Sequence record: AP012538
Length of the DNA stretch: 58,538 nt
Source of the DNA: Stx2-converting phage Stx2a_WGPS4
Direction: 5' to 3' (one strand)
Below, piece after piece: positions 18,001-21,000 of this stretch. Position numbers: made by a program. Each line of letters opens with the position of its first letter. Position 1 is the first letter of the stretch.

Positions 18001-21000
18001 TCGAAACCGATCGGGCGTGGGAAGTGTTCGAAAAACTGGAAGACTGCTATTTCAGCCAGTGCGAGAAAAATACTGGCAAACAAGAGAAGAAGCTCAACGG
18101 GCTTTCCGCAAAAGAAACAGACAGCCTTGTATGGCTGTGGGATTATGCCAACCGCTCACAGGCATTGTTCCGTGAGTTGTATCCCGCATTAAAACTGATT
18201 CAGTCTGGCTATTCCGGCATATGCCACGACTACGGCTATGAGTTCTCGTATATCATCGGGAGGGCGAGGGGCGTTTTAATTAATCACACGCGGGATATAG
18301 ATATTTATGAGCCTGACGGGCCGACGAACCTTCTGGCATGGGAAAGGCTTAAGAACAAAGAGTTGCCGCCTTCACTGCATCGCTACTGACAATTGACAAC
18401 TTAACAAACCCAGCTTCGGCTGGGTTTTTTATTGCTGAATTTTCAATGTGAGAGGACATGACAATGAATGAGCTGATAAATAGCAATGCCATCAAAATGA
18501 CAAGCATTGAAATCGCTGAGTTGGTGGGAAGCCAACACGGTAATGTCAGAATATCAATAGAACGTCTGGCAAAGCGTGGGGTGATTCAACTTCCTTCAAT
18601 GCAAAAAGTTGAAAATAAACAAACAATTAGCCCTAACAAATTCACAAGCGTGTATATATTCGAAGGCGAACAAGGTAAGCGAGACAGCATTATTGTCGTC
18701 GCTCAGTTGTCGCCGGAATTCACCGCTCGCCTTGTTGACCGCTGGCGAGAACTCGAAGGGGCAACCGCGAAAATACCACAAACCTTTTCTGAGGCATTGC
18801 GCCTTGCGGCCGACCTTGAAGACCAGAAGGCTGAACTGGAGAAACAGCTTGCTCTCGCAGCACCTAAAGTTGAGTTTGCCGATCGAGTTGGCGAGGCCAG
18901 CGGAATTTTGATTGGAAACTTTGCAAAGGTTGTTGGTATTGGTCCAAACAAACGGTTTGCGTGGATGCGCGATCACAAAATCCTTATTGCTTCAGGTGCC
19001 CGGCGCAATGTGCCAATGCAGGAATATATGGATCGCGGCTATTTCACAGTGAAAGAAACAGCGGTCAATACAAATCACGGAATACAGATATCGTTCACCA
19101 CAAAAATCACCGGGCGTGGTCAACAGTGGCTGACAAGAAAGCTGCTAGATAACGGAATGCTTAAAGTAACAGGGGAGGCTGCTTAATGGCTAAACCAGCG
19201 CGAAGGAAATGCAAAATCTGTAAGGAATGGTTTCACCCGGCATTCTCAAATCAGTGGTGGTGCAGCCCGGAACACGGAACTAAATTAGCACTCGAACGAC
19301 GAAATAAAGAACGCGAAAAGGCGGAAAAAACAGCAGAGAAGAAACGACGACGAGAGGAGCAGAAACAGAAAGATAAAATTAAGATTCGAAAACTCGCCTT
19401 AAAGCCCCGCAGTTACTGGATTAAACAAGCCCAACAAGCCGTAAACGCCTTCATCAGAGAAAGAGACCGCGACTTACCATGTATCTCGTGCGGAACGCTC
19501 ACGTCTGCTCAGTGGGATGCCGGACATTACCGGACAACTGCTGCGGCGCCTCAACTCCGATTTGATGAACGCAATATTCACAAGCAATGCGTGGTGTGCA
19601 ACCAACATAAAAGCGGAAATCTCGTTCCGTATCGCGTCGAACTGATTAACCGCATCGGGCAGGAAGCAGTAGACGAAATCGAATCAAACCATAACCGCCA
19701 TCGCTGGACTGTCGAAGAGTGCAGGGCCATCAAGGCGGAGTATCAACAGAAACTTAAAAAACTGCGAAACAGCAGAAGTGAGGTTGCATGAATATCTACG
19801 AAAGAATTGATGGCAGCAAATACCGAAATATTTGGGTAGTTGGCGATCTGCACGGATGCTACACGAACCTGATGAAAAAACTGGAGACGATAGGATTCGA
19901 CACCAAAAAAGACCTGCTTATCTCGGTGGGCGATTTGGTTGATCGCGGTACAGAGAACGTAGAATGCCTGGAATTAATCACATTCCCCTGGTTCAGAGCT
20001 GTACGTGGAAACCATGAGCAAATGATGATTGATGGCTTATCAGAGCGTGGAAACGTCAATCACTGGCTGCTTAATGGCGGTGGCTGGTTCTTTAATCTCG
20101 ATTACGACAAAGAAATTCTGGCTAAAGCTCTTGCCCATAAAGCAGATGAACTTCCGTTAATCATCGAACTGGTGAGTAAAGGAAAAAAATATGTCATCTG
20201 CCACGCCGATTATCCTTGTGATAAATACGAGTTTGGAAAGCCAGTTGATCATCAGCAGGTAATCTGGAACCGCGAACGAATCAGCAACTCACAAGACGGG
20301 ATCGTGAAAGAAATCAAAGGCGCGGACACGTTCATCTTTGGTCATACGCAAGCAGTGAAACCACTCAAATTTGCCAACCAGATGTATATCGATACCGGCG
20401 CAGTGTTCTGCGGAAATCTCACATTGATTCAGGTACAGGGAGAAGGCGCGTGGGCATAAGAGAACTAAACCTCACCAAAGAACAGCATGAGTGGCTGAAT
20501 GGCTGGCTTGAACTGTGGGGCGCATGGGTTTATTCAGGTCGTCTGGAAAAGCGCATGAGCAGCGTAATAGCTAAATTCATGGAGAGCGTGGAGCCGGGAA
20601 GAGTTATGACAAGGCCAATGTGTAATGATGATGATGGAATGTTGATTTCTCAGGTCGTCGATTCCGTCATGTACATTGACAAGAAAGCCTTTGGCATCCT
20701 CCTCAGCTACTACGCCCACGGCTCTTCCAAGCACGCCATTGCATCTTACTATCATAGCGTCGCAAGACCTCGCAAGATGTTATGCCGGGGCGGCGGGCGC
20801 ATTCAAAAACCATCGCTAGCAACCTGCCGACGGGAAGTTGACGAAATCCTCAATGCCTCGTTGTTTATGATTTACCCGATTCTGGATAGTGCGTTTAAAA
20901 ACCGGAAACGTGTAGAGAAAATTAAGCATGTAGCATAGAACGTGTTGACATCGTTGAGCAAATGAGCAACACTATTCGCATAAGCTGCCGTTAGTGACTC

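Follow-up and report, generated by a model that had tools for sequence, protein, structure and literature searches.

Stx2-converting phage Stx2a_WGPS4 (sequence record AP012538; 58,538 nucleotides (nt), all of which were analysed and are called the window here) carries two separate antirepressor (ant) genes of the Bro-N network, one in the nin region and the other between the tail genes L and K, and these very probably inherited a common module, in which the P22_AR_C domain is followed by a spacer of 18 nt and the ant terminator. Comparison of the window with itself gave a sole long pair of direct repeats, at 18075-18374 and 47844-48143, with 82% DNA identity and a spacing of 29,769 bp. The two genes, the repeat copies and the elements that follow them are:

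17625..18389, plus strand: nin-region antirepressor gene encoding a phi24B-type Ant of 254 residues (open reading frame, Pfam, PHROG and RefSeq)
18075..18389, plus strand: repeat copy 1, the last 104 residues of this Ant (GKQEK...HRY) and the stop codon (self-comparison and protein alignment)
18408..18429, plus strand: terminator hairpin copy 1, ACCCAGC-UUCG-GCUGGGU and a run of T, 18 nt past the stop codon (terminator scan)
18458..19186, plus strand: roi gene, directly after terminator copy 1 (Pfam ANT, 108.7 bits; RefSeq gp37 'roi')
47154..48158, plus strand: P22-type ant gene of the tail region, 334 residues from an ATG that overlaps the arc stop codon; the start is uncertain, with an alternative at 47235
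47844..48158, plus strand: repeat copy 2, the last 104 residues of this second Ant (GKQEK...HHY) and the stop codon (self-comparison and protein alignment)
48177..48198, plus strand: terminator hairpin copy 2, 18 nt past the stop codon, with tail gene K 13 nt further on

With the stop codon counted, 18075-18389 and 47844-48158 match without gaps at 259/315 positions. The identity is uneven, being 84/92 in the 5' third and 175/223 in the remainder, and the block contains a perfect run of 29 nt at 18138-18166. The encoded C-termini are identical at 85 of 104 residues (82%, E 4e-61). After each stop codon comes a diverged spacer of 18 nt (7/18 identical) and then an identical hairpin of 22 nt, so that coding block, spacer and hairpin together form a shared module of 355 nt; beyond it the sequences are unrelated, with 7/45 identical positions upstream and 11/41 downstream. 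Chance or low-complexity similarity is excluded by the E value of the protein match and by the expectation of 0 matches for the hairpin. A preliminary description of this DNA had proposed a dispersed repeat in direct orientation between two genes about 30 kb apart, and the self-comparison and the protein alignment bear out both the repeat and its orientation. It had let the block begin at 18100 and given it about 95 residues and about 330 bp; the block is there, with its true start 25 nt earlier and the larger extent given above. The C-termini, which it called near-identical, are at 82% identity better described as similar.

The hairpin that closes the module is the 22-mer ACCCAGCTTCGGCTGGGTTTTT, 22/22 identical between 18408-18429 and 48177-48198, and this agrees with the earlier proposal of the same hairpin and T-run after both genes. 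The window contains only these two sites even when 3 mismatches are allowed. The folding energy is -15.1 kcal/mol for copy 1 (z-score -4.8) and -15.2 kcal/mol for copy 2 (z-score -2.9), and in neither case did any of 200 shuffled sequences fold as well. Both copies have the make-up of an intrinsic (Rho-independent) terminator, which is a GC-rich stem-loop with a T-run just past a stop codon; the plus-strand T-run of copy 2 is TTTTTATC, five T's and then A, and the terminator scan listed this copy on the minus strand only. The 22-nt hairpin is a recurrent and very stable UUCG-loop element of about -15 kcal/mol, with a predicted role as terminator. Each hairpin would end its own ant transcription unit and shield what follows (roi after copy 1, tail gene K after copy 2), and antiterminated early or late transcription would pass through it, as at the P22 terminator between ant and tailspike.

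Pfam matches confirm that different N-terminal modules stand on one common C-terminal domain. The nin-region Ant has an ORF6N domain at residues 12-125 (66.8 bits, cutoff 27.8) and P22_AR_C at residues 155-226 (83.3 bits), the latter covering positions 2-73 of the 73 in the profile (PF10548, gathering score 22.4). The tail-region Ant has P22_AR_N at residues 39-148 (135.5 bits, cutoff 30.7), a middle module, and P22_AR_C at residues 234-306 (102.3 bits), with positions 1-73 of 73 covered at the same gathering score. The first protein falls in PHROG 377, 'anti-repressor Ant' (E 2.6e-85), and the second in PHROG 245, also an 'anti-repressor Ant' family (E 2.5e-108). The window is in essence Stx2 phage 1717. 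At the first locus it agrees fully (100%) with that phage and with Stx2a_F349; at the second its identity is 99.9% to phage 1717 and 100% to phage 2851. Phage 1717 has the genes of both loci annotated as antirepressors. The two Ants are putative members of this functional class, which binds and inactivates a CI-type prophage repressor. P22_AR_C is one of ten Pfam families in the domain-swapping 'Bro network', and this network was reportedly first described in 2002, by Iyer, Koonin and Aravind. Both Ants have the composition expected of its members, an N-terminal network domain (ORF6N or P22_AR_N) joined to P22_AR_C.

The first gene had been described as roi-like, a label that is one gene off. 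RefSeq, in its record for phage 1717, names the nin-region gene gp36, 'anti-repressor Ant', and the one after it gp37, 'roi'. A Roi protein is recognized by a Rha-type N-terminal region and a KilAC/ANT C-terminal domain, a length of about 240 residues and a position just before ninG; the nin-region gene encodes ORF6N and P22_AR_C, with neither Rha nor ANT found by Pfam. The roi gene at 18458-19186 matches Rha below threshold (27.2 bits, cutoff 29.9), and the Pfam search found no P22_AR_C in it; roi has no share in the repeat. The same order, with Ant first and a Roi of 242 residues downstream, was described in Stx phages (Smith et al., 2012, PMC3430580).

Related loci were taken from IMG/VR as exact matches to the 22-mer (at least 120 loci, denoted below by L-numbers), and the counts that follow hold among the matches listed. 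A P22_AR_C block lies directly upstream of the hairpin, in register, in 84/120, and these 84 loci together with the two window copies make 86 contexts. According to Pfam, the N-terminal partner of the domain is P22_AR_N in 36 of the 86, ORF6N in 24, Bro-N in 17 and KilA-N in 3. Downstream of the hairpin there are about ten contexts in all: a P22-type tailspike gene (35 of 86), the roi (KilAC) gene of the nin region (23 of 86), tail gene K (11 of 86) and seven rarer ones.

Relatives were scored at the 67 positions that separate the two window copies, as R when like copy 1 and as A when like copy 2. Two loci with a Bro-N partner and K downstream (L029 and L030) are A-type up to 18137; from 18167 onward, spacer and hairpin included, they are R-type, and the K context begins at the T-run. 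These switches put crossovers within the perfect run of 29 nt (18138-18166) and at the hairpin itself. The order R-type, A-type, R-type is found in phage JLK-2012, L023 and L069, an A-type patch lies inside the block of L043, and the type switches near the 3' end in L008 and L049. Also, L007 encodes an Ant with P22_AR_N whose C-terminal domain is 100% R-type, in the nin context. Across related phages these mosaics mark the module as a recurrent site of homologous exchange at which crossover appears frequent, and in this broad sense they give good support to the earlier suggestion of a block on which recombination acts.

The exchange also involved a whole cassette. The tail-region ant is preceded by two repressor genes and a further hairpin:

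46555..46572, plus strand: left-border terminator hairpin of the ant moron, which follows tail gene L and faces mnt
46563..46907, minus strand: mnt-like ribbon-helix-helix repressor gene (73 bits to the Pfam Arc family), at the moron's left end
46991..47164, plus strand: arc-like repressor gene, directly 5' of ant (Pfam Arc family, 22.1 bits, cutoff 20.4)

This is the gene order of a P22-type immI region, with mnt-like on the minus strand, then arc-like, then ant 3' of arc, and the arc-like gene is annotated as 'Arc-like repressor' in phage 2851. The hairpins at 46555-46572 and 48177-48198 flank the cassette between tail genes L and K, and the cassette is the 'ant moron' of P22-like phages, here within a lambda-type tail cluster; published work notes high genetic flux in this moron. 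On the minus strand, a perfect hairpin of 14 bp that ends in a T-run spans the arc stop and the ant start. The Rfam match to sar at 47169-47235 on that strand reaches 29.5 bits (E 0.0024), under the gathering score of 43, and the minus-strand hairpin at these positions is probably a diverged sar-like antisense RNA.

In JLK-2012 (L002, NC_049942, 3073-5151) a complete mnt-arc-ant cassette, 98% identical to the window from 46548 onward, lies within the nin-region ant. The result is a truncated ORF6N protein of 179 residues that runs into antisense mnt sequence; a complete P22-type Ant comes next, beside roi. Its left junction is at a 16-nt near-identity between 18141-18156 and 46548-46563, where 15/16 positions agree (GGATTATGCC[A/C]ACCG). 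On the right, a three-way alignment places the switch inside the coding block, near window positions 18368-18376, and this rules out a junction within the hairpin. Among 5,426 complete E. coli genomes, 3 have the arrangement with a P22-type Ant beside roi, the host of JLK-2012 included. E. coli DEC5E, STEC346 and RM10410 carry this arrangement.

Other changes were seen next to the hairpin. In L011, L082 and L048, P22-type Ants retain the N-terminal and middle modules of the window's ant as well as its terminator, and two unrelated C-terminal domains replace P22_AR_C between the linker LEGEFIGK(Q/S)E and the hairpin; the C-terminal domain of Ant is itself an apparently swappable cassette. Four loci (L015, L065, L078 and L056) are deletion scars: besides spacer and hairpin, no more than the final 12-30 nt of ant remain, and the remnants in L065 and L056 adjoin a terminator of the mnt-side type (CCCACC-N4-GGTGG).

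How the two copies came to lie in one genome can be judged from their age. Between copy 1 and copy 2 the synonymous divergence (dS) is 0.71 and the nonsynonymous divergence (dN) 0.106 (dN/dS 0.15), and each copy has relatives 97-100% identical to it elsewhere; those of R-type lie in nin regions, those of A-type in tail regions of the P22-like and lambda-like kinds. The copies are anciently diverged and under purifying selection. This old divergence, together with the closer relatives of each copy elsewhere, indicates that they entered the genome separately and not by local duplication. The module had been called duplicated, in the sense of a copy made within the genome; the value of dS and the closer relatives in other phages contradict it. 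A recent segmental duplication in this genome, by which the 3' end and terminator of one gene were put onto another, would explain the common orientation, the equal spacer length of 18 nt and the identical hairpin. However, such a duplication would have left near-identical copies with few synonymous differences, and the copies show 82% identity, a dS of 0.71 and a spacer that agrees at 7 of 18 positions; moreover, the 97-100% identical relatives of each copy lie in other phages and the ant cassette is a known mobile 'moron'. We regard this origin as extremely improbable, and separate acquisition of two genes with a common inherited module as the better account.

Recombination between the two copies was the other expectation of the preliminary description, which spoke of deletion or inversion of about 30 kb including stx. 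Direct repeats cannot invert the interval, and the self-comparison of the whole window found no inverted repeats of at least 60 nt. As for the deletion, stx2A and stx2B do lie within the interval, but its junction was found in 0/5,426 E. coli genomes. The proposal at its fullest is that the copies recombine in the prophage, with a 29.8-kb deletion or excised circle and loss of Q, stx2, the lysis and head genes and most tail genes, as a regular source of defective, stx-negative prophages. The direct orientation, the 29-nt perfect run, its use as crossover point in L029/L030 and the position of stx2 inside the interval would speak for it. On the other hand, a chimeric query for the junction (17400-18150 joined to 47920-48900) had no match covering at least 80% of it in the 5,426 complete E. 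coli genomes, and ORF6N was paired with tail gene K in 0 of the 86 contexts. Repeats of 82% identity with short perfect runs are also a poor substrate for RecA, which counts against the deletion. The product may form, with no sign of persistence, and we judge active recombination of this kind to be quite improbable.

The hairpin itself invites a further explanation, in which it and its flanks are a dedicated 'boundary sequence' selected to promote the exchange of modules, instead of a terminator that happens to lie at crossovers. The CUS-3 record annotates 'bsq1; boundary sequence' on exactly this interval after ant, homology to the window stops at the hairpin in CUS-3 and in L029, alternative C-terminal domains still have the same hairpin after them, and short conserved boundary sequences have been proposed in the literature as mosaic junctions. 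Yet nothing expected of an intrinsic terminator is missing from the hairpin, unrelated genomes also contain it, and many of the crossovers are inside the coding block, away from it; selection for evolvability is also hard to tell from the by-product of a conserved functional element. We think a dedicated exchange sequence unlikely.

The shared domain belongs to a narrow family, as an exhaustive search of 1.84 billion representatives gave 28 clusters at E <=1e-3; a homologue search of protein databases returned mostly short partial proteins. An AlphaFold2 model (mean predicted local distance difference test (pLDDT) 86.7, predicted template modelling score (pTM) 0.77) has two long antiparallel helices (residues 12-41 and 47-72) and a short third helix. 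It is possible, and we propose it tentatively, that P22_AR_C is a protein-interaction module for contact with the repressor or for self-association, because P22 Ant and the phi24B-type Ant have no other part in common. In the mechanism that we propose, P22_AR_C would be the helical protein-interaction part of Ant, with differing N-terminal modules. Two long proteins, P0067 (1547 residues) and P0076 (839 residues), matched residues 9-58 of the domain repeatedly, in 15 and 4 stretches respectively, at about 30-46% identity; these matches may be coiled-coil or repeat noise, not homology.

Several observations weigh against the reading of one module, inherited in common and supplying one shared activity. 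IMG/VR loci (for example L009, L016, L020, L004 and L005) place the identical 22-nt hairpin in eight or more unrelated surroundings, AT-rich contigs among them, so the exact identity of the UUCG-loop terminator is no proof of homology when taken alone, and convergence on so stable a UUCG hairpin could account in part for its perfect conservation. What the mosaics show is exchange between such blocks, not between two copies inside one genome. A search by sequence for a solved homologue gave none for the P22-type Ant and a chance-level match to syncytin (E 0.019) for the nin-region Ant, and the best hit of Foldseek against the PDB had an E value of 3.6, all hits being generic helical bundles. 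Similar P22-type Ants bear two unrelated C-terminal domains in the place of P22_AR_C, and to judge from these the domain may set specificity instead of supplying the core activity.

The two genes would also be controlled differently. The nin-region ant is preceded by two structured RNAs:

17387..17463, plus strand: isrK-like RNA (Rfam, 74.7 bits, gathering score 50)
17489..17572, plus strand: C4 antisense RNA (Rfam, 66.7 bits, gathering score 45)

A match to c4-a1b1 at 17374-17426 is borderline (45.9 bits against 46.7 in Rfam), and a promoter-like site (17351-17380) and a terminator-like hairpin (17442-17458) also lie ahead of the gene. An upstream open reading frame at 17455-17628, which lacks an ATG, stops in an ATGA that overlaps the ant start. 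This is the layout of a putative ant operon controlled by C4/IsrK, with isrK and C4 directly upstream and an overlapping upstream frame. By analogy, the isrK/C4 segment (17387-17572) is the presumed regulatory leader of the nin-region ant. The gene would encode a phi24B-type Ant (ORF6N and P22_AR_C) whose translation is under the control of this leader. The tail-region gene would provide a P22-type Ant (P22_AR_N, middle module and P22_AR_C) from a mnt-arc-ant 'ant moron' inserted between L and K.

Other features were noticed in and near the nin region. An in-frame tandem repeat of 30 nt, in 3.1 copies, lies at 17817-17910 inside ORF6N (consensus LRV[AT]L[NS][YN]SQN). Close relatives in IMG/VR have 1, 2 or 3 of these 10-residue units (proteins of 234, 244 and 254 residues) and more distant ones have none, so the repeat behaves like a loop of variable copy number. 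The stx2 A and B genes are at 21447-22828 (B subunit 22559-22828), after three tRNA genes at 21252-21492, and a match to the small RNA STnc100 (22903-23114, 158.5 bits) is just 3' of stxB.

Each part of this arrangement has a described counterpart. The immI region of P22 has in common with copy 2 the P22_AR_N and P22_AR_C domains, the mnt/arc order, a weak sar-like hairpin and a terminator before the next late gene; it differs in that the P22 cassette precedes the tailspike gene, whereas that of the window is between lambda-type L and K, and in that the sar match of the window is below the Rfam gathering score (29.5 against 43 bits). Copy 1 has the same nin-region place as phi24B ant (ninE, ant, roi), and the likeness of phi24B Ant to the P22 type is limited to the final 104 residues, with 82% identity (Fogg et al., 2011, PMC3064807). 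By published figures, on which our comparison is based, the Ants of phi24B and phage 1717 are 73% identical (Smith et al., PMC3430580); the three 10-residue tandem units inside ORF6N are a difference of the window gene. When ant of phi24B was knocked out, late expression from pR' after norfloxacin was lower and superinfection was unaffected, and P22 Ant inactivates the repressors of P22 and lambda, as cited in the same work (Fogg et al., 2011, PMC3064807).

The control region of copy 1 resembles the isrK-orf45-anrP locus of Gifsy-1 (Hershko-Shalev et al., 2016, PMC4825925), in which an antirepressor-like protein is gated at translation, and the C4-controlled ant of P1/P7. They have the same layout, with isrK and C4 upstream and the ATGA overlap; a difference from Gifsy-1 is the missing ATG of the upstream frame in the window. 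As to the Bro-N network, the joining of P22_AR_C to ORF6N, P22_AR_N, Bro-N and KilA-N in relatives is the combinatorial pattern already described, and nothing of substance sets the window apart from it: it is a textbook case of two members that share a domain in one genome. The repeat is therefore not new, being a known Pfam domain in a known pattern of shuffling, in a sequenced and annotated phage, with the 82% likeness over 104 residues already published.

A more speculative idea is that both Ants hetero-oligomerise via the shared domain, which would couple the isrK/C4 circuit with that of Mnt/Arc/sar, so that induction of the Stx2 prophage integrates two independent switches, of RNA and protein; we hold this to be rather doubtful. 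In a weaker variant the C-terminal domain might pick the repressor that is attacked, and swaps such as those in L011/L048/L082 might retarget Ant to other prophages in polylysogens.

As a discovery, the repeat has little weight, as it reflects ordinary phage domain shuffling of a kind already described. What this analysis usefully adds is a corrected gene identity (ant in place of roi for the first gene), a pair of distinct control circuits and natural crossovers that have been mapped. The block of domain and terminator is a clean natural case of homologous exchange with its crossover points located, and the mapped exchange includes a whole immI cassette moved into the nin region in JLK-2012. 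For the biology of these phages, it means that one Stx phage would carry two differently regulated antirepressors, which bears on how easily a stx2 prophage may be induced.

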